Positions 5,426 to 64,000 are shown, counted from the first letter of the stretch. The stretch is DNA of 64,000 bases from a virus (IMGVR_UViG_3300033069_002007:1-64000), one strand, 5' to 3'. The notes: a model not told the origin generated them from the letters alone. Made by a program: numbers and translations.

Positions 5426-6496
5426 CTAATTCCAAACGTACTTTTTACTCCTAATTTTAGCCGAAAGTGACTCAAAACCATTATCTACTATGATTCCCTC
5501 ATTACTAAGTCTTTTAAATCCAACTTGAACAGCTTGTCTAAATCCCATATCCTGAGTATCAAATCCAAATCGATTCATAAATCCATAGAGACTAAATCCA
5601 TCAGGGAATTTCTCCTTTATTACAAACCAATACTCCTCAATAAATTTTCTAATCGGATGTATTTGAGCCTCTCTAACTTTTTGTTTACAAGAGTCAGTAT
5701 TGTGTGATGTCTTAAACTTAACTTTGTATTCCTCAGTTTGTCTTACTGACTTCATCGTCTCTTTTTGTTTAGCTCGTGCCTCAGGAGTATGAACGAAAGT
5801 AATCATATTTTGTCTAGATTGATTTCTTATTTGTTCTTTCTTTTCATCTGAGTGATTACCCCAAATTCTCCTTGCTTTATCACCTGCAGCAGCTTTTCTT
5901 TTGAAATTATTTTTCCAACCTTTCTTTTGTCCTAGTGATAAAGCCAGTTTAACTTCTGGTTTTTGTCTCGATAATTTCTGCACTCGAGACCTCATAGCTT
6001 TAACTTCAGGTCTTGAATTATATTCTTTCATCTTACTTTTCCATTCACTAGTTTGTTTAGTTTTACTTATACTAAAACCTCTTTTTATATTTGTTAATTT
6101 ATCGTTTTGTACTACTTTCATCTTTGCACAGTGAGCAATATGCTCGTCTACTGTCATACTATGAATATAATTTTGTCCTGGTTCCTCAGTTCTAAAATTA
6201 TAACCTCTAGAATTGTGAGTACTATCATACCACTCAACAATATAGAATAACTCTGCCCAATCTAGATCCTTTCTGCTATAACATTCAGTTAAAATAGTTA
6301 CAGTAAAGTTATCTTTACCATGAGATTTAATAGCTGATCCTAGTCTTTTGTTTGTTTTATCAGGATGGTTTAAATGATTGAATGGTCGAATTTTAGGATG
6401 TACTGTTTGACCGATATATACTTTACCGTTAGTTTTATTTTGTATCCGGTAAATATATCCTATTGTAAAGTTTTTCGTACCATTGAACATAATCAA
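5426..6496 (-). CDS. GIY-YIG homing endonuclease (Seg-like) with NUMOD3-like repeats
   Basis: GYIYRI...KVYIGQT, AELFYI, RGYN; C-terminal HSDEKKEQI/HTPEARAK-type repeats; free-standing, downstream of capsid gene. Confidence 0.85.
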   Translation of the reverse strand: MIMFNGTKNFTIGYIYRIQNKTNGKVYIGQTVHPKIRPFNHLNHPDKTNKRLGSAIKSHGKDNFTVTILTECYSRKDLDWAELFYIVEWYDSTHNSRGYNFRTEEPGQNYIHSMTVDEHIAHCAKMKVVQNDKLTNIKRGFSISKTKQTSEWKSKMKEYNSRPEVKAMRSRVQKLSRQKPEVKLALSLGQKKGWKNNFKRKAAAGDKARRIWGNHSDEKKEQIRNQSRQNMITFVHTPEARAKQKETMKSVRQTEEYKVKFKTSHNTDSCKQKVREAQIHPIRKFIEEYWFVIKEKFPDGFSLYGFMNRFGFDTQDMGFRQAVQVGFKRLSNEGIIVDNGFESLSAKIRSKKYVWN

Positions 6497-6572: not shown

Positions 6573-8003
6573 TTAAAGGTTTTCTAATTGAATCAAGCGG
6601 CTGAAACGACTGTTAATGTCACGCATATCTTCAACTGTAGCCAAAGTTCCTTTTCGGTAAAGTTCTGGATAATCAAGAGCAGCATAAAGTTCAGTAAGAA
6701 CTCCGATTGCAATGTTAACATCACCATCTTCATCTGGGTTACGATAAGTTCCAAGGATCTCATTGTTTCTAATCGCAGTATCAGATTTAGGAGCAACATA
6801 AACTTCTTTACCATCAAGTTTACCTGCCATGTATGAACCACCGATTCGTTTTTGAGAACTATCATTCTCCCAAAGCTTATGCATTTTCATGAAAGCTAGG
6901 GCTTGAGTTCCAACTACGAATTTGTTTAATTCACCTCTCTTCAAGTCATCATATAGATTTCCATCTACTTTAGTGATTGTTTGAAGTAAAGTTTGAGCAT
7001 GGTTATAAAGGTTATCTGCACCAGCATTTGTGAAAGAAGCATCGAAAGTAGTGATAGCATTGTTAGTTGCTTGTTCACGAAGTCTTTCAAAGAATTTAGC
7101 ATCCTTTCTCATAGCGTGAGTATCACCAACACGTTTGATCAACATCTCTTCAGCATCACCTACTCCTGTTGTATCCAAAACTAATTGGAACATTTTAGAG
7201 TATTGGTAAGTCAAAGGCATTGGTCGAGCATTGAAACGTGCTCTACGAAGATTAAGCTCAATCATACCCCATTGGTCATAATTGTCTGCTTCTTCAGAAT
7301 CCCATTGTGCTCTTAAAAGAACTGATGCACCACTTGCAGGGGCAGTAGCAAAAGTAATAGATGCTGTACCACCAGAATAAGAAATTGTTCCTGAAGATAC
7401 TCCAGAACCAGAGAATGAACCTTCTCCATCATCAACTGCTACTCGTTTTCCACCAACTACAACATATGCTGTAAGAGGAACGATTGGAGTCACAGGGAAT
7501 GTGAAAGTGAAAGTTGTAACAACACCATTTGCTGTTTGAGCAGCAGAAGCTTTGTCATACTCTGTTGAATAATCAGGGTTCATGTTTTCATAAACTAGAT
7601 CACCTTCAGTTGCACCACGTTTAGTAGAACCGAATTTTGTATCTACGAAATAGAAAGCATCATCAGGAGTAGTTAATTGCCACTCATGACCGATCTCAGC
7701 TCTATTTGATTGACCAACACCGATACGAATAATACGAAGTACATTCTCTGGGCGAGTAGAGAAAACAGATTTAATCTGAGTTCCATCTTCTTTTAACTTA
7801 CGAAGGTGAGCATGTTCATTTCTGATTCGAGCTCTTTGAGGATCTTTAGCATAGAGTTTATCTAGTTTAAATCCTACAGGAGTTTTACTAATTTTTTCAA
7901 CTAGAATATCCCCTTGTACTGACATTCGAGCCAAATGCTCTTGCATTTGGGCTTTAGAATAGCCATTAACTTTTGGTTTTTGTGATTTTGCAGCTGTTGC
8001 CAT
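6573..8003 (-). CDS. major capsid protein (T4 gp23-like HK97 fold) with beta-rich insertion
   Basis: ARPMPLTYQYS...GDAEEMLIKRVG resembles gp23 KSRKLKA...LDAEAEL; directly follows prohead protease; strong terminator after. Confidence 0.85.
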   Translation of the reverse strand: MATAAKSQKPKVNGYSKAQMQEHLARMSVQGDILVEKISKTPVGFKLDKLYAKDPQRARIRNEHAHLRKLKEDGTQIKSVFSTRPENVLRIIRIGVGQSNRAEIGHEWQLTTPDDAFYFVDTKFGSTKRGATEGDLVYENMNPDYSTEYDKASAAQTANGVVTTFTFTFPVTPIVPLTAYVVVGGKRVAVDDGEGSFSGSGVSSGTISYSGGTASITFATAPASGASVLLRAQWDSEEADNYDQWGMIELNLRRARFNARPMPLTYQYSKMFQLVLDTTGVGDAEEMLIKRVGDTHAMRKDAKFFERLREQATNNAITTFDASFTNAGADNLYNHAQTLLQTITKVDGNLYDDLKRGELNKFVVGTQALAFMKMHKLWENDSSQKRIGGSYMAGKLDGKEVYVAPKSDTAIRNNEILGTYRNPDEDGDVNIAIGVLTELYAALDYPELYRKGTLATVEDMRDINSRFSRLIQLENL

Positions 8004-8045: not shown

Positions 8046-9791
8046 TTAGTATTTGTTGTCTCCTATCCAATCATATCGTCCAGGATTAACTCTGGATTCA
8101 CTGATTCTAAGTGGCTTCTCATCTTCTTGTTTGAAGAATTTTTCAATAAACTTAGTTGCTTGAACTAAATTTGGTTGAGCAAGAATACCTTCTTTTATTT
8201 TTTTAAGAACTGGAGTTTTTACAACTCGTTCATTATAAAAATTCAATACATCTCGGTTTATAGTTTTTGGTTTAGTAGCTGATTCTTTAATAGTTTGTTT
8301 AGCAGGTTTTCCACTTTCTAAATAACCAGATTCATCATTATAATCTTCCCAAGGAACTCCACCATAATCTTCATCGTCAGCTCTATATGCAATCATAGGA
8401 TCTACGATATCACCGTAATCCTCATCAGGATAAGCAGAGTTTTGAACGAGGTCAATATCTAATACATCTGGTTGACCAATTTCATCCTCAACCATAGTTT
8501 GAGTGTCAGCAGTTGTATTTTCTTTTTTTAATTCTTTGTTTTCTTTACGAAGACGAGCAATGTCTTCAAGCATAACTAGTTTTTCAGACAATGCTTGACG
8601 AATATCTTTTAAAAGGATTCCCCTTTCAGAGATAAGACCATTGATGTCATTTCGTGCTACTTTAACATCTTCCATTAAAGCCGTGATATCGTTTTCCATT
8701 AACTTACTGTCTTCAACCAAAGCAGTTAAGTCAGTTTTAAGAATCTTTTCGTTTTCACTAATAGTCTTAATAACTTCTTTTGATTTAGTTAATTGTTCTT
8801 TAATTTTAGTTAACATAACATCTGAAGTCTTAGCTTTCTCTTTAAGATCACTAATAGATTCTTCGGATACTTTTAGTCTTTCAGTATTTTCTTTAATTTC
8901 AGACTTAATCATAAGATCAAGGGAAGCAATTTCTTCAACTAACTTAGTTCTTTCATTACCGAAGGACTCAGGAATAAGCTCAAGGGTTTCTTCGATGTCT
9001 CGTTTAGCCTCTATAAGAGAAGCTCCTTTGTTTTGTTTTGCTCTTTCTGATTCTTTAAGAGCAACCTTTACATTGTTTCTAACTGTTAATGCTTGAACGC
9101 CTTCTGTCGCCATATTATGATTCCTTTCTTGTTGATTTATTTTTTCTTCTATTATATTAGTATTACTTTCGACTTTCGTCTTTACACTTTCAGACATCGA
9201 TACTGAATTGGTATCAATATTATCTTGTTCAGCATATACCCCTTGAGATGGAGTTAATACCCAATCAGACAATCTAATAAGTTCATAAGTTCTAGGATTT
9301 ACTGTTCTTTCGTCTTCCATTAGTTCACCGAAACCAACAGTTGAAAGACCATTCTTTCCACCAGCTTGTAGTACTTCTAAGAAATGTTTTCCATGTTTAC
9401 CAACAAGATATAGATCAGCAGTGCAATTAGATTCGTTGATTTTGAAATTTCTCCAAACACCAACAATATCTTTAACTGATCCATCTGAGTCATCTCCTGG
9501 ATGATCAGCGAGACAAAGAGTTCCTTCAGCTACCTTAGCTCGATATACATTTTCCCAAAGCTCTTTAGAATATACCCTACCGTTTAGATTTTCAGTAAAT
9601 CTAGTTACGGGAACATTTCTTACTATAGCTACTGCTTTAAACTTCTCACCTTGAAACGATTCAACTAAAGGACGTTGACCTTCAGTTAAGACTTCAATAC
9701 TGGTAGATGGGATAGTAACAGAAAAAGACTCAATAAAAAGATGTTTTCCTTTTTCTTGAGCAATCTCTTTTAATGTTTTTCTTTTTTCCAT
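8046..9791 (-). CDS. prohead protease (gp21-like) fused to coiled-coil scaffold-like region
   Basis: NLNGRVYS, LADHP, GLSTVGFG, DWVLTPS in the N-terminal ~190 aa; long heptad-rich then acidic C-terminal region. Confidence 0.85.
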   Translation of the reverse strand: MEKRKTLKEIAQEKGKHLFIESFSVTIPSTSIEVLTEGQRPLVESFQGEKFKAVAIVRNVPVTRFTENLNGRVYSKELWENVYRAKVAEGTLCLADHPGDDSDGSVKDIVGVWRNFKINESNCTADLYLVGKHGKHFLEVLQAGGKNGLSTVGFGELMEDERTVNPRTYELIRLSDWVLTPSQGVYAEQDNIDTNSVSMSESVKTKVESNTNIIEEKINQQERNHNMATEGVQALTVRNNVKVALKESERAKQNKGASLIEAKRDIEETLELIPESFGNERTKLVEEIASLDLMIKSEIKENTERLKVSEESISDLKEKAKTSDVMLTKIKEQLTKSKEVIKTISENEKILKTDLTALVEDSKLMENDITALMEDVKVARNDINGLISERGILLKDIRQALSEKLVMLEDIARLRKENKELKKENTTADTQTMVEDEIGQPDVLDIDLVQNSAYPDEDYGDIVDPMIAYRADDEDYGGVPWEDYNDESGYLESGKPAKQTIKESATKPKTINRDVLNFYNERVVKTPVLKKIKEGILAQPNLVQATKFIEKFFKQEDEKPLRISESRVNPGRYDWIGDNKY

Positions 9792-9838: not shown

Positions 9839-10570
9839 TTAAGCTCCATCACCAGAAGCATTTTCGTCATCATCAGCATCCATCCCTCTGTCAGAAGGAG
9901 CATTACCCATGTTATCAAGTGACATAGCATCATAGTCAGAACCTGTATCATCACTGATTAAGCTGTCGCCTTCGTCAGTTTCAGACTCTTCATCAAAGAT
10001 ACTTTTATAGGTATTAGATTTCATACCTGTAATAGCTTCTTCCATATCATCCTCATCGGAATCGTTAGACTCTTCCATATCTTCTTTATTGTCTTTATTG
10101 TCTTCTTCCTCATCTTCTTCCTCAGAAATTTGAGTTCGATTTTCAAGTTTAGCAGCCATTTCTTTAACTCGTTTAAGGCGAGCTTTTTCTTTCATTTCTG
10201 CATCGTCTTTCTTGTCATCTTTTTTATCGTCTTCTTTTTTATCATCAGTAGTTTCTTCTGCTTCAAAAAGAGACTTATACTTAGCTGATACTTTAGACTC
10301 AAGCATACCGATTTCGTCAACGATAGAGTTTTGAGCATTTAGGGTTTTAACTGTGTTTGAAAGGGAATCAACAACCGCATTGTCAACACCATGATCATCG
10401 ATAACATCAGTTATAACTGATTCAATTTTATCCACTACGCTATCTATGACTGCAGGCGCCATACTTTCTTTCAAAGCTTCTTTTAATTTAAGTGCAAGCT
10501 TTGAATCTTTTTTGTTTTCTTGTTTTGAAGTTTTATTTTCAAACAATGACTTATATCGTTTCATTCCCAT
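9839..10570 (-). CDS. acidic prohead core/scaffold-like protein with three YKS[LI]F motifs
   Basis: very D/E-rich; KRYKSLFE, AKYKSLFE, NTYKSIFD; immediately upstream of protease. Confidence 0.55.
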   Translation of the reverse strand: MGMKRYKSLFENKTSKQENKKDSKLALKLKEALKESMAPAVIDSVVDKIESVITDVIDDHGVDNAVVDSLSNTVKTLNAQNSIVDEIGMLESKVSAKYKSLFEAEETTDDKKEDDKKDDKKDDAEMKEKARLKRVKEMAAKLENRTQISEEEDEEEDNKDNKEDMEESNDSDEDDMEEAITGMKSNTYKSIFDEESETDEGDSLISDDTGSDYDAMSLDNMGNAPSDRGMDADDDENASGDGA

Positions 10571-10618
10571 GGTTCTAACCCATCCTATTGATAGTAATTA
10601 TTGCTGAAGTTCAGCATT

Positions 10619-10627
10619 TAATTAGTA
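10619..10627 (-). promoter_or_regulatory. putative late promoter TACTAATTA
   Basis: intergenic, upstream of core-protease-capsid genes; recurring motif. Confidence 0.55.
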
Positions 10628-10649
10628 TCAAAACTAATAGAATTAAGTT

Positions 10650-11789
10650 TTAATTTTTACTGTCTTTGTCTTTAATAAGAAGTGATCGTTTGACTAACTC
10701 TTTCCAGGAATCAGGATTTCTTAGTCGTTCTTTTATCGATTGTTCTACTGATCTTAAATCTAGTTTCTTAAATAGATTGGATATAGTCATTAGATAGTCT
10801 AGAACTTCTTGTCTTATCTCCTGAGACACTCTAGGATCGTCCTGACAAAGATATGGTAGAAGTCTTTGGACTCTCTTCAGACATTCTTCAGCAGATAGGT
10901 TTATTTCAGCAACTAGTGATCTAGTCAAAAGAGCTTTATCCATTTTATAAAATGGTTTATTTGTTACAACAATAATTCTACTCGTACATTCAAATGAGTT
11001 AGGGATTATAACATCCTCTCCTTCAGAATCAGCTTTCTTTAATATGATTGGTTTAGCACCATACCCTACTTTTCTGATTTTCTTTGAATCTAGAACTTTC
11101 TTAAGTATATCAAAATTTTTAGGATTATCTATCAGTGAATCGGCATCATCAAACAAGATTACTTTTCCATTTTCCCTATATAGGAAAATATAGAGGTTCA
11201 TAGTTTGAATCTTTGTTGGTCCTTCGATCCACTGTAGTTCCTCAACTTCTTCCTCTTCAGTGGATATTTCTACTTCGTAATTTTCTAATTCTTTAACTGA
11301 TATAAACTGTCTAGTGTCTGACTCGGGTCCAAGTAATTCTTTTAGAGTAGTAGTTATCTCTACCGTTTTACCTAGACCTGAATCACCTGAACAAATAAAA
11401 GCATAATCAGTTGAACAGGGATCACAAATACTTCTAGTATAGTTAACTACTTGTTTGAATATTTCTTCCTCGCCAATAATTATAGATTCTGATTCAACTT
11501 CAGGTATTGGTTCTTCCTCGACAACCTCTTGAATGACTTCGGGTACGATTTCTTCGACTATAACTGGTTCTGGTTCTGGTTCTAATTTTGGTTCAATAAC
11601 TACTGGTTCCGAGACATCCTCTATTATTTCAGATGTTGTACTCTTAAGCATTGTTTTAAATAAAGAAAAAGACTCAGGGTTTCCTAGTTGTTTGTCTCGG
11701 ACCCAAGTACTATATGACTTATATAATACTGGAGTGGATTGGGTCGTATCTGGTAATGTTCTACTTACCCACTGTTGTATCGTCTTCAT
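10650..11789 (-). CDS. AAA+ ATPase with acidic Pro/Glu-rich N-terminal linker
   Basis: Walker A GDSGLGKT, Walker B ILFDDAD, sensor-1 IIVVTN. Confidence 0.75.
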   Translation of the reverse strand: MKTIQQWVSRTLPDTTQSTPVLYKSYSTWVRDKQLGNPESFSLFKTMLKSTTSEIIEDVSEPVVIEPKLEPEPEPVIVEEIVPEVIQEVVEEEPIPEVESESIIIGEEEIFKQVVNYTRSICDPCSTDYAFICSGDSGLGKTVEITTTLKELLGPESDTRQFISVKELENYEVEISTEEEEVEELQWIEGPTKIQTMNLYIFLYRENGKVILFDDADSLIDNPKNFDILKKVLDSKKIRKVGYGAKPIILKKADSEGEDVIIPNSFECTSRIIVVTNKPFYKMDKALLTRSLVAEINLSAEECLKRVQRLLPYLCQDDPRVSQEIRQEVLDYLMTISNLFKKLDLRSVEQSIKERLRNPDSWKELVKRSLLIKDKDSKN

Positions 11790-12228
11790 GTATAATTAGT
11801 CGCTTCTGATTGTACTTGTTCTCTAAATGCTTTATATACTCTAATATTTTGTTCATACATTTATCAGGGTTCTTAAATATTTGTCTTCCTGTAAATCTAA
11901 GAACATACCAATCATTCATAGCAAGGTATATTTGTCTCTGGTAATCATGTTCTCTTTGATGTAAGTAACTATGAAAGTTAAGTCCATCTATCTCGATATC
12001 TATTTTAAATCTTGGTCTACTAGATGATTTGTCGAAATATGCAAAATCTAGTTTATAAGGACCAACTGCAAACCCTGATTCCAAAATTATAGGATAAGTT
12101 TTGGAAAAATTATAGAATTCTTTTTCTAACGGAGAATCCCAATCTATATTGTCTGTTTGTTGTTTAGTTTTATTTTCTTTCTTAGGTCTTACGATTCTTT
12201 TCTTAACTGCTTTTTTGAAACGTTTCAA
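11761..12228 (-). CDS. DUF559 / Vsr-like endonuclease
   Basis: PYKLDFA...IEIDGLNFH...DYQRQIYL...WYVLRFT; TTG start. Confidence 0.8.
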   Translation of the reverse strand: MKRFKKAVKKRIVRPKKENKTKQQTDNIDWDSPLEKEFYNFSKTYPIILESGFAVGPYKLDFAYFDKSSSRPRFKIDIEIDGLNFHSYLHQREHDYQRQIYLAMNDWYVLRFTGRQIFKNPDKCMNKILEYIKHLENKYNQKRLIIHEDDTTVGK

Positions 12229-12231
12229 ACA

Positions 12232-12912
12232 TTATTCCTTTGGAGGCATTAACTTAGCGATACGAAACTTAAATAAATTTTGATTACCTTTATTTGTCTT
12301 GACTTGAGGTTGATTATTATCGTCCACATCAAAACCTGTTACGGTCATCCTTTTATTCTTAAATTTTCCACCGAGGATTTCATCCCCGACTTCAAAAGGG
12401 ATTTCCATATTCTCATAAATTGACTTGTATGGTTTTAATTCCACACTTTCAGTTGTAATCTGTGAACTACTAACCAGTATAACGCTACCTATAACATATT
12501 CACAACCAGATTCTATCTCTTTAGCTACTCTATGATGTCCATCCAGAAGATAATAGAATTCACCAAACTTCATAAGTTCTGGGTAATTTGCATCCTGATC
12601 TTTAGAAGAGAATACCCACTTCTCAAGTTTGTCTCGTTTCAAGAATCTCTGAGTCGGAACTATCATTTTAACATCTATTGATTCCTGACCAGATGTTTTG
12701 AAGTAATCCTTATATTTATTTGGATCTGAATTACACTCTAGTTTAAAAACAATATTTGTTGCATGCTCTACTTCAAGAGGATATGCAAAAGGATTGCAGA
12801 AATATTCTTCGACTGAAACTAAATTGCTAGGATCTTCAGTTAATTCATAAGCACTCAAGTTCGTATAGTATGTCTTTTCTTTAAAGACTGACTTATAAGA
12901 TTTAAGCATCAT
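12232..12912 (-). CDS. ParB/Srx-like domain protein with two YKS tags and a C-terminal beta-domain
   Basis: YYLLDGHHR; KSYKSVFKE at the N-terminus and ELKPYKSIYE internally. Confidence 0.6.
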   Translation of the reverse strand: MMLKSYKSVFKEKTYYTNLSAYELTEDPSNLVSVEEYFCNPFAYPLEVEHATNIVFKLECNSDPNKYKDYFKTSGQESIDVKMIVPTQRFLKRDKLEKWVFSSKDQDANYPELMKFGEFYYLLDGHHRVAKEIESGCEYVIGSVILVSSSQITTESVELKPYKSIYENMEIPFEVGDEILGGKFKNKRMTVTGFDVDDNNQPQVKTNKGNQNLFKFRIAKLMPPKE

Positions 12913-12914
12913 AA

Positions 12915-13676
12915 CTAATTAGTAGATCCCGTCATTCTTGCTGGTTGTAGAGGTAATGTTTTATCCTGTACTAGTTTCAATACTTTATCGGAGGCTTTAA
13001 AAACTATTGGTACAATACCAGCTAAGTGTTTACAAAGGTAATCACTACCACCATGAACTTTTCTCCAAACAGGATCGGAAATACTTTGAGGATATATTGC
13101 TGAATCAACTTTAGTTGCTCTATATCTCTTACCTTGCCAGTTAAAGGATGCACAATTACAATCAACTTTTATGTTAGATACTTTTAATATCTTTCTAAAT
13201 GTTGAAGCAGATAGGTTCCAAATATTAATAGTTCTTTTTTGCTTCTCCGACGCTTGTCTCGTATATTTTTTAAAGTCAGTAAATTGAATCTTCACCGTAT
13301 ATGATCTCAATCGCTTCCATGAGTTGGTTTTATTATTATAACCTTGTGTCGAAGAAAAGTAAGTAGGATTAGTTTTGAGAGTCAGAATGTCTGTATCTGG
13401 ATCGTAGTCAAATATCTTTGCTACTTTCTTTTCCTGACCTAGAATACCATTACGTTCATTTTTGTAATATCTAGTTACTCCAGATATATGTTTGCTCCAC
13501 TGATCGATTGAAAATTCTTTTAATAGACTACCATGGTTTAATTCTTGTAGCTCTTCCTCAGATAATAGTTCACTTATGTCGGTCAGACTTAACTCATACT
13601 TTTCTTTACCATTAAAGATTGTATAAGTTAAATCATCATTTGACTTGACTATTTCTGATAACTGGTGGGGCATCAT
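12915..13676 (-). CDS. SWIM zinc-finger protein
   Basis: KVDCNCASF...YLCKHL. Confidence 0.65.
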   Translation of the reverse strand: MMPHQLSEIVKSNDDLTYTIFNGKEKYELSLTDISELLSEEELQELNHGSLLKEFSIDQWSKHISGVTRYYKNERNGILGQEKKVAKIFDYDPDTDILTLKTNPTYFSSTQGYNNKTNSWKRLRSYTVKIQFTDFKKYTRQASEKQKRTINIWNLSASTFRKILKVSNIKVDCNCASFNWQGKRYRATKVDSAIYPQSISDPVWRKVHGGSDYLCKHLAGIVPIVFKASDKVLKLVQDKTLPLQPARMTGSTN

Positions 13677-13678
13677 TA

Positions 13679-13975
13679 TTAAAGTACTACTTGTATATCA
13701 GTTCCATTTTTAAACACTATTCTTATTCCTGATCTATTTGCAACAAAAAACTCAAAAGCTTCCTCATAAAAGTAAAGCTCAAAATTATTATTCCCAAATA
13801 TTATACCTTTTTTATGAGCCATTTTTACCATGACTTTTTCAACTGACATAGTAAACACCGTTGTCACGTCTAATTTGAACTTATTACTGTCTTCCATAGG
13901 TGACAGTACTGCAATTAAACCTTCCCAACTTTTATTATTTGATTCTTCTTTGAATACGCTTTTATATCTTTCCAT
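13679..13975 (-). CDS. putative internal head protein (YKS tag)
   Basis: N-terminus MERYKSVFKEES. Confidence 0.55.
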   Translation of the reverse strand: MERYKSVFKEESNNKSWEGLIAVLSPMEDSNKFKLDVTTVFTMSVEKVMVKMAHKKGIIFGNNNFELYFYEEAFEFFVANRSGIRIVFKNGTDIQVVL

Positions 13976-13977
13976 AG

Positions 13978-14232
13978 TTATACTCCAATACTATTTTGGT
14001 AAAACTTTTCTATTACTTCTCTTAACTTAAGTGGTAATCTAGCATTTGTAGTCTTAGACATCTGAAGTAGTTTAAAAGCATATTCAGCGGTGTCATCTTG
14101 CCACATAGGTGATACCCCAAAAGAATGGGCTAGTCTTGCTATCCCACCTTTTATCTTATCTACTAGAGAAACTCCATCTTCTGACATCATTTCTTGTTTT
14201 TCCTCTTTATAAATAGAGTTATACCTTTCCAT
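13978..14232 (-). CDS. putative internal head protein (YKS-tag variant)
   Basis: N-terminus MERYNSIYKEEK. Confidence 0.55.
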   Translation of the reverse strand: MERYNSIYKEEKQEMMSEDGVSLVDKIKGGIARLAHSFGVSPMWQDDTAEYAFKLLQMSKTTNARLPLKLREVIEKFYQNSIGV

Positions 14233-14242
14233 GTTTAAATCC

Positions 14243-14683
14243 TTATTTTAATGTTAACAAATAACTTAATTTCTGTGTTTCACCAATCATTTCATCAATT
14301 ATATTCTGTAGAGCAGTTGAATTGAAAGGTACTTTATTTTCAAAACTCTTTCTTAATTCTTTGAGCCAAACTAAAGTGTTACCAATATAATCTTTTGGTT
14401 GATCGGAATCTAAACTATAATCACATAAACCAATTAGGTCTGATTTTCCAAATGATTTTATATATTCTCGACCAAACTCACCCTGATAAGATTCAACAAA
14501 GGAATCAATAAAGTCTGACATTGCATCATAATAACTTCCTAATGCTGTATGTTCAGCATATCCATAAGTTTGCCAATGAAATATTTTAACTTGAGCTAGT
14601 ATGCCAAGAAATTCTTTTACAAATGAGTTTTCAGGACTAACGTCAAACTCTGATTCTTTATATACTGATTTATAGGGTTTCAT
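14243..14683 (-). CDS. Dps/ferritin-like (DUF5856-type) protein with YKS tag
   Basis: KIFHWQT...EHTALGSYY...IDSFVESYQG, LQNIIDEM...YLLTLK; N-terminus MKPYKSVYKE. Confidence 0.75.
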   Translation of the reverse strand: MKPYKSVYKESEFDVSPENSFVKEFLGILAQVKIFHWQTYGYAEHTALGSYYDAMSDFIDSFVESYQGEFGREYIKSFGKSDLIGLCDYSLDSDQPKDYIGNTLVWLKELRKSFENKVPFNSTALQNIIDEMIGETQKLSYLLTLK

Positions 14684-14691
14684 AATTTATT

Positions 14692-15378
14692 TTACCACGT
14701 ATGCTTCTTCATTGATATCTTTCTTTTTCGATTGGTTGCTGTTTGCTTACTTTTAATTTTTCTGGCACTCTTTTTAGCAATGATACTTTTCTTTCTAGTC
14801 TCGGAAGGTTTCTTTCTAACTAGTTTTTTCTTACTACCTGTTCCTTTGACTCCATATTGTTTATTAGTGCTGTAATATTTTATGGTTTTCTTTCCGTTTC
14901 GAATAACGAATTTTTTCTTTATACCTTCTTCTAGTTCATCGTCAATACAATAGTCATCCCTGATTTCCTCAACGAAATAAACTGATTTGTATGGTTTTAA
15001 GTAAGGCATCGATTCTTCTAAGTTAAGAATAATATCACCATTGCTTTTCATGATTACATCCATTCTCTCATCTTTTCTCTTGAAATACTTTTGTATGAAA
15101 TCGATTATAACTTTAGGCCAAGGAAGAGAAGCATCAAGTAATGGATATTTAAGTGAGTTATCTTTAATATATTCAGCTATTGTTTGAAGTAATTCTTTTA
15201 CTTCAGGATAGAATTTAGAAGTTAGAATTTGTTTAAACTCCATTGGGTCACTATTATTATATTGAACCCAAACTTTATTACCTTGAATCCAAAATTCAAA
15301 AGTATACATCCACGCTTTTGAATTCCTTATGGTTCTAATTTGATGATACTCATTAAGTGATTTTAAATTTAAATCCAT
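14692..15378 (-). CDS. gp68-like prohead core protein (C-terminal part) with internal YKS tag
   Basis: basic tail RKKSIIAKKSARKIKSK...RKRKISMKK resembles T4-type gp68; internal ESMPYLKPYKSVYFVEE. Confidence 0.55.
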   Translation of the reverse strand: MDLNLKSLNEYHQIRTIRNSKAWMYTFEFWIQGNKVWVQYNNSDPMEFKQILTSKFYPEVKELLQTIAEYIKDNSLKYPLLDASLPWPKVIIDFIQKYFKRKDERMDVIMKSNGDIILNLEESMPYLKPYKSVYFVEEIRDDYCIDDELEEGIKKKFVIRNGKKTIKYYSTNKQYGVKGTGSKKKLVRKKPSETRKKSIIAKKSARKIKSKQTATNRKRKISMKKHTW

Positions 15379-15625
15379 ATCTAGTTAGTATCCTTTCAAC
15401 TTCTTTTTTTCTTTTAGAAAAATCCTCAAAGGGTTTAGTATCGATTATAACTATATCCTTAACTTCTTTTGTCTTCATAATTACACCAAACATTTCTTCC
15501 AAATCTCTGAAGAATCTGTTCAATCTAAAATTATGATTGTATATTATTATTTTTTGAAATGATTTTTCAAAATAGTCACTTACAAGTTTATCTAAGGATA
15601 TAGTTTCATACATATTACTTTCCAC
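15353..15625 (-). CDS. hypothetical protein
   Basis: coupled ORF in head operon. Confidence 0.55.
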   Translation of the reverse strand: MESNMYETISLDKLVSDYFEKSFQKIIIYNHNFRLNRFFRDLEEMFGVIMKTKEVKDIVIIDTKPFEDFSKRKKEVERILTRYGFKFKIT

Positions 15626-16130
15626 TACCTAGAGTATATTTTTGTTTTCCAAATCTTTTTATTTGTCTAATCTCTGGCTTTAGAGCAGCAAGTCTATCCT
15701 TAGCTAGTTTTAATTTTCTAGAAGACATCAATAGAACTAACTTCTCTTTTGGTTCAGTACTATTGTCATCTACTCCTTCAACTAAAATAGGTTTCATATC
15801 TTCCCATGCTAACATATCACCTAACTTAGAAGGATAGTAACACATTTCTTTTTTCCCATTACGGGTAGAGAAACGACTCAATAGGTTTTCAGAGAACTCA
15901 CCTTTAGCCCCTAATCTAGGAAGACCACCAAACTCTTGTTCAGGATTAAGATATAACTCTACTTCGTCAGCTATGTCTGCAATAATAATTTCATGAACTA
16001 ACTCTTCACAATCTTTAGTTGGGTCATCCCAAAGAATAACCTTCTTTTTCTTTTTAGTTACATCAGAAGTAAGAATATCGTATTGATAATTTTCTCCATA
16101 TATTGATTTGTAAGGTTTCATTTCCATCAT
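15615..16130 (-). CDS. putative internal head protein (YKS tag)
   Basis: N-terminus MEMKPYKSIYGEN. Confidence 0.55.
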   Translation of the reverse strand: MMEMKPYKSIYGENYQYDILTSDVTKKKKKVILWDDPTKDCEELVHEIIIADIADEVELYLNPEQEFGGLPRLGAKGEFSENLLSRFSTRNGKKEMCYYPSKLGDMLAWEDMKPILVEGVDDNSTEPKEKLVLLMSSRKLKLAKDRLAALKPEIRQIKRFGKQKYTLGSGK

Positions 16131-16532: not shown

Positions 16533-16805
16533 CTAATTAGTATTGAAATTGAACTGTTTAAATAAGTTTTGAATTTCTAGTTTTTGTTCCGGTTTTAAAA
16601 TCAGTGGTGGGCAGTCATTTGTTTCTTCTTGTAATATTAAGTCATTTGAATTTAAAAATTCTGTAGTTATTTTAAATCTATAGTTTTCAGTTACTATAAA
16701 AGTTCCTTCATCTGAGTCTACTAGTAGTTTACAATTATTTAAATCTATGCCATCAAGATTAAACTCAAAGTCTTCTTGTTCTGGAGTAAGGATTTCCGAA
16801 AACAT
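16533..16805 (-). CDS. hypothetical protein
   Basis: ORF with GGAGG SD. Confidence 0.55.
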   Translation of the reverse strand: MFSEILTPEQEDFEFNLDGIDLNNCKLLVDSDEGTFIVTENYRFKITTEFLNSNDLILQEETNDCPPLILKPEQKLEIQNLFKQFNFNTN

Positions 16806-17732: not shown

Positions 17733-19730
17733 TTAATCCTCGCCTTTATTTAATGTTTTCATATCTAATTCCCAATCTTCAGCATCATCTTGTTTAGGTT
17801 TAGTATCCTCAAACATGTTTGATATTTTTCTGAGTTGTCTCAATTTATTATTCTTATGAATTTTTTCTTTGAACTCAGAATATTTACCTTGATTCTTAAT
17901 TTTTAACTCTTCATTCATGAGTTGAATTTTTGACTCAACTTTAAACTTCTCAAACAATGATATGTCAAAATCACTATTTTTCTTTCTTGACGATAAATAA
18001 TGTCTACCGTTTGCTTTATGTTCAGTTGCAAAACCAATTCTACCTTTGGTTATTTCTTCCTCAACTATAGATTCAATTAGTTTAGGTGAAGTCTTTCTTC
18101 TCAATGATTCAAAAGTAAAGTCTCTATTATCTTGTTGTTCAGTATCATCTACTTGTTGTTCATTCTGAGATTGAGCTATATCTGCTTGTTCTTTTTCTAT
18201 TTTATCTCTTTGTTCAACGAAATCATTTATCCACTTATCAATAGTTTCAGGATCGAATGCTGTTACTTTTTTATATACTTGTTTGATCAAATCAGGAGGT
18301 AATGGGATTTCATCCCCTCCCCCAACTCTTTCCTTTATCCCATCAAGTACTTCATTAGCTAATGCAAATAAATCTCTTTGTGATGAAATGAGCTCTGGGT
18401 TATTTTGTGATTCAGGATAAGGCATTGATAATTTAAAATCAATTTCTTCCATATTGAAGTCGCCTGATTGAATCATATCAATCTTTATCATTTGTGAAAC
18501 TTGTTCTAAGAAAATTGTTTGATACTTATATACTTTTCTTGCAAAAGGTTTATGTTGTTGGATCAAGGATACTCCTGAATTTCCAAAACCCCCATTGTTT
18601 GGATCCAAGAAGTTTCTCGGTAAACCAGTGGATATTACTATATCATCTCTCATTAACTCGATATCATCTATTCTACCCAAATTGATTTGAGGAGATTGTT
18701 GTTCATATTCAAACAAATCCTTAATAGTTATTTTTGCTTCACCTAAACCGTCATTCTCCTTTCTAACTTGTTGAAGTCCAGAGGCTTGCCAATATCTAAT
18801 GAAATTTGCAGCTAATTCAACTTTATCTGTAGGCATCCCACCTTGAGGGAAATTTAAAGTATAGACATCAATAGGCATATTTGCTTGTCTTGCTAATACT
18901 GCCATACCTAGAGCCATATCGTACATCTTAGTTGGAGCAAGTGAATAAATAAATGCTGGTATACCAAATGGAGCAAAGAAGGAGTTAGTATCGTAGTTTC
19001 TAAAATGTAAGAATCTCCAAGGAGGTAAAACAAATGAACCGACTTGAAATCCAAATAAGTAACTTCTAAAAAATGAAGCATAATCACCTTGATCCATAAT
19101 GTTCTGAGCAAGTAGTTGCATTTTCTTGTCATTACTAATATTTTTAAACATTGAGTTGAATCCAGTTGATCTCAACTCTTTCTCTACATCATGGGGTGTA
19201 AATTCAATTCGATCATCTATATCGAAAGGGTCAACATTTAAAATTTCAGATATTCCTTTATTATGGAATGTTAATATCCATCCTGCATCACCAGTAGTTA
19301 TTAAATTGTTTATCGTTGGAAAAATATATGAGTCAACATTTAATCTTATCAATAATTTTTCAATATATATTCTTTGTTTTTTATCCTTAGCTTCAACTGA
19401 TATGATTTGATTATTTGTGTCACCTTGTACTACTTCATGCCCTAACATCTCTCTTGCTGCTTGCATCAAAGCACTACTTTCAAACATCCTATACATATCC
19501 TTATACATAAGGATTCTATCTTCAAAATCATATATTAAACTCTGATTTTGATTCCAGGTGTTCCATAATTGTTTTACATACGGAGGAAATTGTTGAATAC
19601 TATCGGTATCACTTATTTGACCTCGATTATCGAATTTCTTTTGTAATGGTACTACTCTACCCTTGTCTACTTTAAAAGAATATTTGGAAAATAATGAGTT
19701 TAGTTTACCTTGAAAGTTTAAGTCTGCCAT
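17733..19730 (-). CDS. portal protein (T4 gp20-like)
   Basis: 665 aa; FLHFR...PFGIP...KMYDMALGMAVLARQAN...VYTLN resembles the gp20 core; upstream of core/protease/capsid genes. Confidence 0.8.
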   Translation of the reverse strand: MADLNFQGKLNSLFSKYSFKVDKGRVVPLQKKFDNRGQISDTDSIQQFPPYVKQLWNTWNQNQSLIYDFEDRILMYKDMYRMFESSALMQAAREMLGHEVVQGDTNNQIISVEAKDKKQRIYIEKLLIRLNVDSYIFPTINNLITTGDAGWILTFHNKGISEILNVDPFDIDDRIEFTPHDVEKELRSTGFNSMFKNISNDKKMQLLAQNIMDQGDYASFFRSYLFGFQVGSFVLPPWRFLHFRNYDTNSFFAPFGIPAFIYSLAPTKMYDMALGMAVLARQANMPIDVYTLNFPQGGMPTDKVELAANFIRYWQASGLQQVRKENDGLGEAKITIKDLFEYEQQSPQINLGRIDDIELMRDDIVISTGLPRNFLDPNNGGFGNSGVSLIQQHKPFARKVYKYQTIFLEQVSQMIKIDMIQSGDFNMEEIDFKLSMPYPESQNNPELISSQRDLFALANEVLDGIKERVGGGDEIPLPPDLIKQVYKKVTAFDPETIDKWINDFVEQRDKIEKEQADIAQSQNEQQVDDTEQQDNRDFTFESLRRKTSPKLIESIVEEEITKGRIGFATEHKANGRHYLSSRKKNSDFDISLFEKFKVESKIQLMNEELKIKNQGKYSEFKEKIHKNNKLRQLRKISNMFEDTKPKQDDAEDWELDMKTLNKGED

Positions 19731-21013: not shown

Positions 21014-21029
21014 AATTAGTATACTAATT
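21014..21029. promoter_or_regulatory. palindromic back-to-back putative late promoters
   Basis: perfect palindrome AATTAGTATACTAATT in the 26-bp gap between divergent genes. Confidence 0.6.
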
Positions 21030-22794: not shown

Positions 22795-22803
22795 TAATTA
22801 GTA
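22795..22803 (-). promoter_or_regulatory. putative late promoter TACTAATTA
   Basis: 17 nt before ATG with GAGG SD in between. Confidence 0.55.
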
Positions 22804-24022: not shown

Positions 24023-26326
24023 TTAAATAATAAATAACTTTTTACAAATTTCTAATATTTTTTCCTTATATTGGTTAGATGAGAATAATCCTTGTCCCCC
24101 TCGATCATAACAATACATTAGAGACGACAGTATCATATTAGTTTTGATACCAAGATTCAAATCGAGTATACCATCATATATGGTTTTACTCCTGGTTTTA
24201 ATAACTGTCGGTTTATCTAGTTGTTTTAACTCAAAATTACAATTTTGTTGAGTTGAAAATATATTTTTATCTCTATTCCGCTTATTGAATATTCTGGCTA
24301 AAACTATAGGTTTGTAATCACTAAATACCTTTCTTAACTCATCATGTGAATAAGAACTATTCCAGGATTTAAGCATGGTATTGTTTAAAAAAGTAGAATA
24401 AGTTTTTATAAACTCTTTGGATTTCCAAATTTGTTTCAACTCAACCATTCCAACTTGATTTTCAAAGATATCTTTACTAGATTGTTTGACAATATATATT
24501 GGAATATTTATTTTCAAATGTCTTAAAACTTCTAAACTTCTACCTACTAATAATTCAAAATCACTGGAACAATTTCTAATCAACCAATTAGGTGAATATT
24601 CTCGAAAATTTGACAAAACATTATCATTAAGTAATATGTAAATTCCTTCAGTTACTTCTTGAGTTAGCATCTCATCGCTAAACAATTTTTTAGTTCGTCT
24701 CTGAAAATAAAGTGTATTATCTTTTATTCTATCATTATTGCTAAAAAATACATACTGAAGTAAATTAATATGTACAGATTTTGGAATTTCTACTGGGACA
24801 GCAGCTGCAACTCCATTATGTATCACTTGAACTTCAGCTTTCTTTTTTGGTAAAGGCGTTGGGGCAATAGAGGAATAATTCACCACATCTATCCCATACT
24901 CCCTCAGTAATTGAGTTGCAGCTTTTAAGTTTTTAAGATATTCCTTTTTTATTGCATCATCTTTAAGTTTAGTTAGATCAAATGGTTCAATAAATATATC
25001 ACTCTTCTTTTCATTATATATCGTATAGTTTATAGTCGCTTTACTTCTTATATCTTTGACGATCAATCTAATATTATCCATTCCTTCTGTTAGAATTCTG
25101 TCAACAATATCAATAGTTTGCTTATTTCCCCATCTATGAGGTGCAACTCTAACAGAAAATCCCCCAACTTCAGAACTGTAATCTCTATCTACTATCATGG
25201 TTCTATTCTGAAAAACATTATTGATAATGTCTAAACTTTTAAATTTGTTTCCCTTCCAAGCTATCGACTCAATCTGAGATGTTTGTATTCCAAACAAACA
25301 ATACAAATTATTGTTTTTGATGGTTTTAAAAATAAATCTATGAGCCTGAATCAAAGAGGGTTGTGCATCTAGCTCCTTCTCTAAATCCAGTAGTAGTTTT
25401 TCACTAACTTTTGAGATTTTAGTTTTTAGTTTTGTTATCGTGACCTCATAAAAGAATAATGTTTCTCTATTTGCTGATATACTTAACTCTCCATTTGAAA
25501 AGGGGAAACATATAACCGTGTTATTCATACCAATATTTGCATTTAATCCTATAGTTCCGAATTGATTCAATGGAATAGGGTATTGAATGTCGTCAATAAG
25601 AATTATCAAACTGTTTAGAGTAGATTGATAATTATTGTTTCTGTATATTCTATACGCTGAGTTTATTTCTACTTCATCTAATTTAAGTTTGGATCTAGTA
25701 AAACCAATTAGAGTTGGTTGAATCTTCCAAAAAAGAGTTGAATGTAAAACTCGATCCTGAAAAGTTGATTTGTCTTGACTCTTAATTGGGATGATAATGC
25801 TGGTTCCATTTGGATCCTCAGTTTCAATTTCAGACAACAGAATCATTTCTCCTGTTCCTGCTGAATTCAGAGCTGCTGAATAGATGTACTTTATTTTGTC
25901 AACATTTGTTTCAACGAAGAAAGTATCAGTATAACTAAAAGGAGTCTTAGCCCCTAATCCAAAACCACCAGTTTGTTTGTTAGAATTTGTTTTTGTAGAT
26001 GATCCATAATTACAGAACACATCTTCCATTCTCGAAGGAGAAATTCCTGGTCCTTCATCTGTAAACATAATGACTGTTTCACTATCTGCGAATATCCAAG
26101 AATCCCTGATCGCAATAGTGATGGGCTTATTTGGTTTTCCAGCTTCTCTATTTGCATCACGAGCATTACAAGCAACTTCTCTACAAATTGCTCCAATTGG
26201 ATCCTCATACATTTTAGCTCTAAGGAACTCAAGAATTTTCCCAGTATCCTCTTTTCTGATACCAAATTCTATGGATTTAACATGACCATTTGTTTGAACT
26301 ATTTCTTTGGATTCAGCTAACTTCAT
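24023..26326 (-). CDS. rIIA: RIIA protein (N-terminal GHKL ATPase)
   Basis: REVACNARDA, DEGPGIS, YGSSTK, GGFGLGAKTPFSY; adjacent to rIIB. Confidence 0.88.
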   Translation of the reverse strand: MKLAESKEIVQTNGHVKSIEFGIRKEDTGKILEFLRAKMYEDPIGAICREVACNARDANREAGKPNKPITIAIRDSWIFADSETVIMFTDEGPGISPSRMEDVFCNYGSSTKTNSNKQTGGFGLGAKTPFSYTDTFFVETNVDKIKYIYSAALNSAGTGEMILLSEIETEDPNGTSIIIPIKSQDKSTFQDRVLHSTLFWKIQPTLIGFTRSKLKLDEVEINSAYRIYRNNNYQSTLNSLIILIDDIQYPIPLNQFGTIGLNANIGMNNTVICFPFSNGELSISANRETLFFYEVTITKLKTKISKVSEKLLLDLEKELDAQPSLIQAHRFIFKTIKNNNLYCLFGIQTSQIESIAWKGNKFKSLDIINNVFQNRTMIVDRDYSSEVGGFSVRVAPHRWGNKQTIDIVDRILTEGMDNIRLIVKDIRSKATINYTIYNEKKSDIFIEPFDLTKLKDDAIKKEYLKNLKAATQLLREYGIDVVNYSSIAPTPLPKKKAEVQVIHNGVAAAVPVEIPKSVHINLLQYVFFSNNDRIKDNTLYFQRRTKKLFSDEMLTQEVTEGIYILLNDNVLSNFREYSPNWLIRNCSSDFELLVGRSLEVLRHLKINIPIYIVKQSSKDIFENQVGMVELKQIWKSKEFIKTYSTFLNNTMLKSWNSSYSHDELRKVFSDYKPIVLARIFNKRNRDKNIFSTQQNCNFELKQLDKPTVIKTRSKTIYDGILDLNLGIKTNMILSSLMYCYDRGGQGLFSSNQYKEKILEICKKLFII

Positions 26327-28694: not shown

Positions 28695-28997
28695 TTAGTA
28701 TGATATTTTAAATTGGTTTCCTGGTAAAATATCTATTGTTTGAAAATGTTCATTATATGAGGTATTGAATCTTTCTAAGTTATCTTTCAACTCATCAATA
28801 GTGATCCCACTAACAATAAATAACTGTTTATTCATAACTTTAACTTTCTTAAAAAATTTATTCAAAGCTCGTTTCAAAGCATCTGAATTTTTCCATTTAT
28901 AGTTTTTAGGATCAGATAACCCAGCTCGTTTTTCTGTTTCCCTATCAACTGAATAATATTCAGACTCTGAATAAATTGATTTGTATCTTTCCATCAT
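28695..28997 (-). CDS. putative internal head protein (YKS tag)
   Basis: N-terminus MMERYKSIYSESE; TACTAATTA directly upstream. Confidence 0.55.
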   Translation of the reverse strand: MMERYKSIYSESEYYSVDRETEKRAGLSDPKNYKWKNSDALKRALNKFFKKVKVMNKQLFIVSGITIDELKDNLERFNTSYNEHFQTIDILPGNQFKISY

Positions 28998-29001
28998 AAT
29001 C

Positions 29002-29010
29002 TAATTAGTA
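29002..29010 (-). promoter_or_regulatory. putative late promoter TACTAATTA
   Basis: 4 nt before ATG of a YKS-tagged gene inside an otherwise early cluster. Confidence 0.55.
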
Positions 29011-61954: not shown

Positions 61955-61980
61955 TAAAAGTCAGGTAATATACTAATCTT

Positions 61981-63765: not shown

Positions 63766-63774
63766 TACTAATTA
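63766..63774 (+). promoter_or_regulatory. putative late promoter TACTAATTA
   Basis: precedes a YKS-tagged ORF. Confidence 0.55.
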
Positions 63775-63803: not shown

Positions 63804-64000
63804 ATGTCAACACATATTTATAAGTCATTAAAACCATATAAATCAATTTATAAATTCTCTGAGAATTCATTCTCTAATACTGTAGTATCTAGAATATTAG
63901 TTTTATTTAATCGAGTTTTACAAAAAAGAATTCATAAACCTTTATTTGGTTCACCTGAACTATATGACTTAATTAAGACTCCTGAAGGTAAATTTTATAC
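63804..64000 (+). CDS. partial ORF with YKS tag (runs off window; not in ORF track)
   Basis: MSTHIYKSLKPYKSIYKFSENSFSN... Confidence 0.55.
   Translation, partial: MSTHIYKSLKPYKSIYKFSENSFSNTVVSRILVLFNRVLQKRIHKPLFGSPELYDLIKTPEGKFY

Follow-up and report, generated by a model that had tools for sequence, protein, structure and literature searches.

A short N-terminal peptide on unrelated proteins of an uncultured myovirus is probably a T4-type capsid-targeting sequence

The virus record IMGVR_UViG_3300033069_002007 is a single contig of 84,907 bp with a GC content of ~32%, and it comes from a myovirus with tail sheath and tube genes. Its first 64 kb (IMGVR_UViG_3300033069_002007:1-64000, the whole stretch of DNA that was analysed, hereafter the window) encode a series of otherwise unrelated proteins that carry the same short peptide, built around a Y-K-S core and here called the tag. 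By analogy with phage T4, we propose that the tag is a capsid-targeting sequence which also serves as a site for the prohead protease, and we put the probability of this reading at about 0.7. Internal proteins of T4 reach the scaffolding core by means of a leader of ~10 residues, which is subsequently removed (PMC8442874). This capsid-targeting sequence is found on IPI, IPII, IPIII and Alt, and its removal is the work of the prohead protease gp21 (Mullaney and Black 1996, as cited in PMC8442874, PMC5694885), which, like the related proteases of giant phages, cuts C-terminal to Glu (PMC5694885).

The tag pattern was written as [ML][KE][PRS]Y[KN]S[IVL][YF]x(0-3)E. A six-frame scan of the window for Y[KN]S[IVL][FY] returned 12 matches (at 10555, 10279, 10009, 12897, 12429, 13966, 14223, 14674, 14991, 16112, 28985 and 63837), every one of them in the frame of a long open reading frame (ORF). 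This agrees with an earlier reading of the window from its sequence alone (the sequence-only reading), which had counted 12 copies in nine ORFs, seven of these between the portal and protease-scaffold genes, and its internal copies in three proteins (twice in the ORF that starts at 10570, and once each in those that start at 12912 and 15378) were found where it had placed them. Just beyond the window, at genome position 65891, a thirteenth copy, MISLKPYTSIYQE, heads a 237-aa ORF, the tenth to be tagged, and the ten tagged proteins amount to ~8% of the ORFs.

Chance as the origin of the tag is ruled out by shuffling and by the separation of the copies in a position matrix. The strict pattern occurs 13 times in the 84,907-bp genome, one of these in a closed frame, whereas 200 shuffles averaged 2.8 occurrences and never exceeded 8. 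The genome-wide scan by pattern and matrix, which had been proposed beforehand as a check, sets 13 sites apart from the rest of the proteome, as the tags score 16-28 bits and the next best proteome site 8.8. The top matrix score in shuffled proteomes averaged 10.8 and in one case was 20.1, and because shuffles reach this value the two weakest internal copies (16.1 and 18.4 bits) need context besides their score. What is conserved is the peptide rather than the DNA, since the 24-nucleotide (nt) tag cores are only 64% identical as DNA and synonymous codons vary, with Ser written as TCA, TCT, AGT and AGC, i.e., from both codon families, and Arg as CGA, AGA and AGG. This codon variation, together with internal copies that have Leu for Met, speaks against an effect on the mRNA or the start codon. 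With the tag removed, the nine N-terminally tagged bodies have no mutual BLASTP match at 1e-3, and the description of the proteins as otherwise unrelated is therefore accurate. One short N-terminal leader on otherwise unrelated proteins is what a T4-type capsid-targeting system has.

The layout of the tag, M-K-x-Y-x-x-hydrophobic-x-x-E, corresponds to that of the T4 IPII/IPIII leader. The T4 record has MKTYQEFIAE at the start of ipII and ipIII, MKTFKEF...ITE in ipI, MELITELFDE in alt and MLKEQLIAE in gp22; the corresponding segments are MNEPQLLIE in gp21, ..LRE in gp24 and ..LTE65 in gp23. We compared the tags with 70 from three related contigs (G001, G002 and G004), which had been chosen by four residues with a simple filter on ORF starts. 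The T4-leader pattern M[KE]x[YF]xx-hydrophobic-x(1,2)-E fits all six Met-initiated tags here and 32 of the 70 in relatives, and none of 589 untagged ORFs (0/481 in relatives and 0/108 here). The tags also end in the prohead-protease motif hydrophobic-x-Glu: [LIFY]-x-E closes 13 of 13 tags here, at tag position 9-12, and a hydrophobic-x-Glu ending is present in 62 of the 70 relatives' tags, compared with 91 of 481 (19%) untagged N-termini.

The enzyme expected to cut the tags is the 581-aa product of the gene at 8046-9791. Single-sequence searches with this protein in Pfam (E 0.01), PHROGs and the PDB gave nothing useful, therefore its link to the gp21 family needs a profile and a fold. A profile of 69 relatives matched T4 gp21 in hhalign with a probability of 95.4% (E 1.8e-8), and the AF2 model (pLDDT 80) had T4 gp21 (5JBL) as its top Foldseek match, with a probability of 1.0 and a TM of 0.64 by target, followed by herpesvirus proteases. 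H97, S150, D176 and E21 are invariant in the 69 sequences, with His97 and Ser150 aligning with the NHPP and GVSSRG segments of T4. The protein fits the T4 gp21 prohead protease family (MEROPS S77), having the gp21/herpesvirus-assemblin fold with conserved His and Ser, and beyond this domain it continues as an extended helical scaffold with an acidic tail. There are 469 relatives and, as those listed are mostly 500-750 aa long, fusion of protease and scaffold is the rule in the family.

The protease-scaffold proteins of the clade (P0122-P0256) themselves start in a tag-like manner, e.g., MNKYKTLQEQ.., MSRYRYLEDK.., MGRYKYLEDK.. and MNRYKTLQEK... This start is followed by AKxKGKxLLIE with the invariant Glu21, which is probably a site of self-cleavage, and the LLIE aligns with residues 6-9 of T4 gp21; in the window, the N-terminus of the protein is encoded at 9729-9791 (minus strand). 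T4 shows a similar resemblance, between the leader of its internal proteins and the first residues of the scaffold gp22. We infer that the leader of the cargo is an imitation of the peptide that brings the scaffold-protease into the core, and because of this imitation the leader would suffice for loading and would be removed by the same enzyme.

The phage has a head module of the T4 type, in which a probable gp20-like portal is combined with the fused gp21-family protease and scaffold and with a capsid protein that resembles gp23. Along the minus strand, the portal is followed by four small ORFs, then by the tagged cluster (from 16130 to 9839), the 581-aa protein and the major capsid protein (MCP). 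The succession of portal, tagged cluster, protease-scaffold and MCP is repeated in four relatives, and it parallels that of the T4 record, 20 (portal), 67, 68, 21 (protease), 22 (scaffold) and 23 (capsid). Since the head gene orders correspond, the tagged cluster occupies the position of the T4 core genes gp67/gp68.

The capsid model matches T4 gp23 with a VIA Z of 18-18.8 and the P1 head protein with a Z of 20.7, both from about residue 95 on; ahead of this, the model is helical at residues 17-73 and disordered at 73-94. Conservation among the relatives includes L-V-E36 (31/34) and [LMF]-x-E72 (33/34), and Pfam Gp23 (PF07068) is recorded on five of them. Within capsid residues 1-86 (7746-8003, minus strand) T-x-P-E86 is also invariant, and in this subclade E72 is followed by QIKSVFSTRPE, a segment that looks similar to YKSVFKE, the core of the tag. 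The sequence link between the portal and gp20 is weak: Portal_T4 (PF07230) was matched by three of 27 aligned portal relatives, with a best E of 1.8e-7, and the window's own portal had no match. A scan of viral contigs with the single portal sequence was empty, and contigs with related portals surfaced only with a portal alignment. Neither the MCP nor the portal had a tblastn match among 50,697 deposited phage records, and both have many metagenomic relatives. An identical portal protein (P0001) is also present on a 131,180-nt contig, which may be another assembly or a concatemer of the 84,907-bp record.

Viral contigs whose portals are 34-39% identical to this one carry many small genes that start with peptides such as MKRYKSLKE, MKRYKPFKFSE, MKRYKRFEE or MNRYKKILKE. 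Among the three contigs compared above, ~23 of 247 ORFs are tagged in G004 (155.6 kb, complete genome), ~30 of 186 in G002 (89.8 kb, fragment) and ~17 of 118 in G001 (77 kb, fragment). Beyond the residues by which they were selected, these tags prefer Lys at position 5, Ser, Arg or Pro at 6 and hydrophobic residues at 7-8, and the first Glu stands at position 9 or 10 in 51 of the 70. A search guided by the protease added seven further contigs with a tagged run directly upstream of the protease-scaffold gene, followed by the capsid gene. In L049, where a more distant relative of the protease is not fused to a scaffold, there are no tags nearby. With the tag removed, 79 tagged proteins fall into 66 BLAST groups, eight of them with more than one member, which speaks against plain paralogy. 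Most of the relatives' tagged proteins match no known family and a few have nucleotidyltransferase, phosphoribosyltransferase or other domains. A BLAST homologue in the three relatives exists for only two of the ten tagged proteins here.

Comparison of these sequences indicates that the tag is modular and lends itself to both addition and fusion. Homologues of the DUF5856 protein take two forms, an untagged one of 121 aa that starts directly with the helical bundle and another of 139-150 aa with a tagged extension of ~25 residues, which starts MK[KRP]YKS.. or a variant of it. In the two-module protein at 12232-12912, the C-terminal 68 residues, from the internal tag LKPYKSIYE on, are 52% identical to a free-standing tagged gene of 72 aa in G002, and in the alignment the internal Leu falls on the Met that opens the MKRYKS tag of the G002 gene (residue 7 of the gene product as called). 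This small basic domain, again behind a tag, is fused in G004 and G001 to a SWIM-like protein that here has a gene of its own. Because the free-standing gene and the fusions align in this way, internal tags are the leaders of once-separate cargo genes, with Leu for Met.

The motif ATACTAAT(T), a candidate late promoter which differs from the T4 late promoter TATAAATA, has 22 copies in the genome, of which 13 are within 70 nt upstream of genes on the sense strand, where 1.06 would be expected. It precedes 15 genes by 10-60 nt, including those for sheath, tube and other structural proteins as well as five tagged genes. All three tagged genes beyond the head module are preceded by ATACTAAT, and the other seven of the ten are in the head module. 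From its sequence context, this placement fits co-expression of the tagged genes with the virion genes. The coordinates of the features are collected in Table 1.

Table 1. Head genes, tagged proteins, tag copies and candidate late promoter sites; positions are those of the window unless given as genome positions.
Feature	Position	Strand	Basis or remark
Major capsid protein, gp23-like, with a predicted 72-residue helical N-terminal propeptide	6573..8003	-	VIA, relatives' Pfam
Prohead protease (residues 1 to ~200, T4 gp21 family) fused to coiled-coil scaffold, 581 aa	8046..9791	-	hhalign, AF2 fold, invariant residues
243-aa very acidic protein, three tag copies, directly upstream of protease gene	9839..10570	-	gp67 analogue by position and composition
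Internal tag SNTYKSIFDE, acidic 243-aa protein	9989..10018	-	scan
Internal tag SAKYKSLFE, acidic 243-aa protein	10262..10288	-	scan
Tag MKRYKSLFE, N-terminal after MG	10538..10564	-	scan
TACTAAT upstream of acidic tagged gene	10621..10627	-	candidate late promoter
226-aa protein of two modules: tag with ParB/sulfiredoxin-like domain, then second tag with basic domain of 59 aa	12232..12912	-	
Internal tag LKPYKSIYE, Leu instead of initiator Met	12412..12438	-	scan
Tag LKSYKSVFKE, after MM	12877..12906	-	scan
TACTAAT 12 nt upstream of 12232-12912	12918..12924	-	candidate late promoter
98-aa tagged protein, no known relatives	13679..13975	-	
Tag MERYKSVFKE	13946..13975	-	scan
84-aa tagged protein, no known relatives	13978..14232	-	
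Tag MERYNSIYKE	14203..14232	-	scan
146-aa tagged Dps-like protein (DUF5856)	14243..14683	-	Pfam E 4.7e-16 from residue 36
Tag MKPYKSVYKE	14654..14683	-	scan
228-aa protein, one internal tag then very basic 91-aa tail (isoelectric point, pI, 10.4)	14692..15378	-	recalls T4 gp68 tail
Internal tag LKPYKSVYFVE	14968..15000	-	scan
171-aa tagged protein, no known relatives	15615..16130	-	
Tag MKPYKSIYGE, after MME	16092..16121	-	scan
Portal protein, 665 aa, probably of distant T4 gp20 type, upstream end of head module	17733..19730	-	127 relatives
100-aa tagged protein beyond head module	28695..28997	-	ATACTAAT 13 nt upstream
Tag MERYKSIYSE	28965..28994	-	scan
TACTAAT upstream of 28695-28997	29004..29010	-	candidate late promoter
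TACTAAT upstream of tagged AAA-like gene	63766..63772	+	candidate late promoter
Start of 525-aa tagged AAA-like protein, which runs to genome 65381	63804..64000	+	phrog_1250 E 4.2e-28; ATACTAAT 38 nt upstream
Tag LKPYKSIYKFSE, 8 residues past first ATG	63828..63863	+	scan
ATACTAAT(T), other window sites	16536-16542, 21015-21028, 22797-22803, 61971-61977		
ATACTAAT(T), other genome sites	65877, 75321, 76641, 78480, 81833-81839, 81973		

Sequence searches for the function of the cargo were mostly empty. The label Dps-like, given in the sequence-only reading, is confirmed by the Pfam match to DUF5856. The label ParB-like, given to the protein at 12232-12912, is a lead from structure, with an Atlas TM of 0.65 to a cluster of ParB/sulfiredoxin type, and no sequence match in Pfam, NCBIfam or the PDB supports it. 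The acidic protein with three sites looks, by analogy, like a core protein of the T4 gp67 type that would be cut to pieces rather than delivered; its fragments have a pI of 4.1-5.1 and it has gp67-like acidic runs (the acidic tail of T4 gp67 was read for comparison). In L051, a close relative whose protease-scaffold is 79% identical, the acidic protein retains both internal tag copies.

The AAA-like protein has a tagged orthologue in G004, which begins with the tag variant MALYESKFIRVEE. Here there are two paralogues, both phrog_1250: an untagged one in the head cluster (10650-11789, minus strand), which has a degenerate 'LYKSYS' near its start, and the tagged one in the replication region (genome 63804-65381, plus strand). 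The untagged paralogue was considered as a conserved receptor for the tag and rejected, as it has no BLAST homologue in the three tag-bearing relatives. The gene at 12915-13676 (minus strand) encodes a protein of 253 aa whose C-x-C...C-x-H pattern is that of a SWIM-type zinc finger; it is untagged here and conserved in all three relatives examined. Two endonuclease-like genes also lie within the head module. One (5426-6496, minus strand) is a GIY-YIG-looking ORF directly after the capsid gene, a position which in T4 is taken by segD after gene 23; the other (11761-12228, minus strand), which matches DUF559/MTES_1575 with an E of 1.5e-11, interrupts the tagged cluster halfway and has the same place in L051. 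Elsewhere in the window, an rIIA-like gene (E 3.9e-68), a further T4-like trait of this small myovirus, adjoins a 'DNA transfer protein'/metallophosphoesterase-like gene (24023-26326, minus strand, and 26450-28171, plus strand).

Other explanations of the shared peptide have to be weighed against capsid targeting. The tag could be no more than a protease site on accessory proteins of the core or scaffold, which are later degraded and expelled in the way of T4 gp22, gp67 and gp68, and in this case nothing would be delivered. This is likely to be true for the 243-aa acidic protein, with its three sites and gp67-like composition, and it would agree with the fact that all tags end in the cutting rule and that most tagged genes are found between portal and protease. 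However, as an account of the whole set we consider it unlikely, because the residues before hydrophobic-x-Glu (M/L, K, R/P, Y and K) are conserved far beyond the candidate sites of the MCP and protease, and in most tagged proteins there is one site only, at the extreme N-terminus, with a folded body behind it. These bodies include a Dps-like four-helix protein and an AAA-like ATPase and, in relatives, nucleotidyltransferase and phosphoribosyltransferase domains, and 66 unrelated, fast-changing families suit accessory cargo better than a conserved building role.

It is a little less probable again that the leader is read by a machine other than the capsid, e.g., an enzyme that modifies it, a chaperone or AAA+ unfoldase, or a pathway to the membrane or for secretion, or that it acts on translation initiation. 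While the presence of the AAA-like gene at 10650-11789 within the tagged cluster speaks for such a machine, only the portal, protease-scaffold and MCP always accompany tag clusters, and the protease relative L049, which has no scaffold fusion, has no tags around it. The leader also has no hydrophobic stretch or Cys suggestive of a signal peptide, and the internal copies with Leu for Met and the free choice of synonymous codons oppose an effect on the start codon or mRNA. That the shared N-termini are functionless leftovers of duplication or recombination among neighbouring genes seems highly improbable to us. Tagged genes are indeed clustered and some of those in relatives are paralogous, as seen in the eight multi-member groups, but the tag has been kept on 66 unrelated groups across phages with portals as far apart as 35-39% identity, the copies are only 64% identical as DNA and draw on both codon families for Ser, and the nine N-terminally tagged bodies here have no mutual similarity.

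Several observations weigh against the proposal that the tag is a T4-type capsid-targeting sequence. Few positions (Y4, hydrophobic 7 and E10) account for the likeness to the T4 leader, which could be convergent, and as the distance from Tyr to Glu varies between 5 and 8 residues it is uncertain where exactly the cut would fall. Hydrophobic-x-Glu is all that the tag has in common with the candidate sites of MCP and protease, and a matrix scan of MCP, portal and protease found no weak tag copy. The N-terminal tag of the acidic protein in L051, MKRYQSVFGN (L051 2111-2848), has Gly where Glu is expected. The charge of the cargo is mixed, with fragment pI values of 4.1-10.4, whereas T4 internal proteins are uniformly basic. 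A tag on 8-17% of ORFs would imply a low copy number for each protein, or that not all of them are packaged. Finally, the portal profile gave no significant hhalign match to T4 gp20 (probability 2%).

Taken together, the idea of a capsid-targeting cargo system put forward in the sequence-only reading is supported in its core by indirect evidence, with a gp21-family protease, a T4-like head order, the hydrophobic-x-Glu ending, conservation across the clade on unrelated proteins and the existence of tagged and untagged forms all in its favour. Two parts of it lack support in the form given. The tag had been called an independent targeting code, but the layout is that of the T4 IPII/IPIII leader and the expected enzyme is a T4 gp21 homologue, therefore it is better described as the T4 system in a distant lineage, greatly expanded. 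The tagged proteins had also been described as cargo for ejection, which as written goes too far, since ejection is one possible fate only and the acidic three-site protein looks gp67-like and cut up.

Following what is known from T4, the leader would make its bearer co-assemble with the scaffold core within the growing prohead and, after the shell has closed, the protease would cut behind the Glu and free the leader. The same cutting would separate the modules of internally tagged proteins, the acidic three-site protein would be chopped up as T4 gp67 or gp22 are, and the folded cargo would remain in the head with the DNA and enter the host with it. A bolder form of this proposal, which we put forward tentatively and rate as possible rather than probable, is that the tag is a portable copy of the N-terminal assembly peptide of the protease-scaffold, such that ten codons turn any gene into virion cargo. 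About a tenth or more of the genes, in at least 66 unrelated families, would then be loaded into the head, freed there by its protease and delivered by injection as an early proteome made in advance, including AAA-like ATPases, Dps-like, ParB-like, nucleotidyltransferase and phosphoribosyltransferase proteins and two-module fusions cut at their internal tags.

In its resemblance to known systems, the tag is closest to the T4 capsid-targeting sequence. Both are leaders of ~10 residues on unrelated proteins with the same layout and a hydrophobic-x-Glu end, and both go with a protease of gp21 homology and the same arrangement of head genes. However, T4 has a handful of such proteins, compared with ten (~8% of ORFs) here and ~17-30 per record (9-16%) in relatives, and while the T4 ip genes are outside the head cluster, most of the tagged genes here are crowded together between portal and protease. 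Internal tags that join two cargo modules, the fusion of protease to scaffold and the Y-K-S core are further differences, and the system is known here from sequence alone. T-even phages have polymorphic internal-protein loci with a conserved capsid-targeting sequence (PMC3012670), and these are alike in that diverse, fast-changing proteins have only the targeting leader in common, but they belong to close T4 relatives that infect enterobacteria, whereas the tag belongs to an uncultured clade.

The parallels with the DarB protein of P1 and with the propeptides of phiKZ-like phages are looser. In DarB, an N-terminal packaging signal is enough for head localisation of a large cargo (PMC9024508). 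This signal is likewise an N-terminal peptide, and in structure the MCP here is matched best by the P1 head protein, but the signal is ~30 residues long and belongs to one protein in the ordered Dar pathway, with no short consensus across many proteins reported. Head and ejection proteins of phiKZ, 201phi2-1 and SPN3US have long propeptides that are cut at (S/A/G)-x-E by gp21-like proteases (PMC5694885). The cut after Glu by the gp21 family is shared, and these propeptides, too, are thought to target proteins to the prohead (PMC5694885). They differ in being mostly 80-160 residues or longer, with no common short tag, and in having A, S or G at P3 where the tags here have a hydrophobic or aromatic residue.

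Encapsulin cargo-loading peptides are similar in that a short portable peptide sends unrelated enzymes into an HK97-fold shell, and Dps/ferritin-like cargo is found in both systems. These peptides are usually C-terminal, remain uncleaved and bind the shell protein directly, and no protease, portal or DNA is involved. We found no published description of the tag, including in searches on MKRYK and on conserved N-terminal motifs with prohead proteases. On the points compared here, the system belongs with T4 capsid targeting, and what sets it apart is its scale, the clustering between portal and protease, the two-module proteins with internal tags and the fusion of protease to scaffold.

If the proposal is true, the loading of proteins into the capsid would not be a peculiarity of T-even phages, but an old and conserved feature of gp21-type assembly which in some lineages has been scaled to a tenth or more of the genes. 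The way in which the tag works is suggested to be imitation of the scaffold's own N-terminus. A sequence rule, MKRYK..hydrophobic-x-E beside a gp21-scaffold gene, would then predict the injected proteins of uncultured phages, and injected proteins would be the likeliest place for new anti-defence functions. It would also provide a second natural pair of tag and protease for packaging foreign proteins in capsids.

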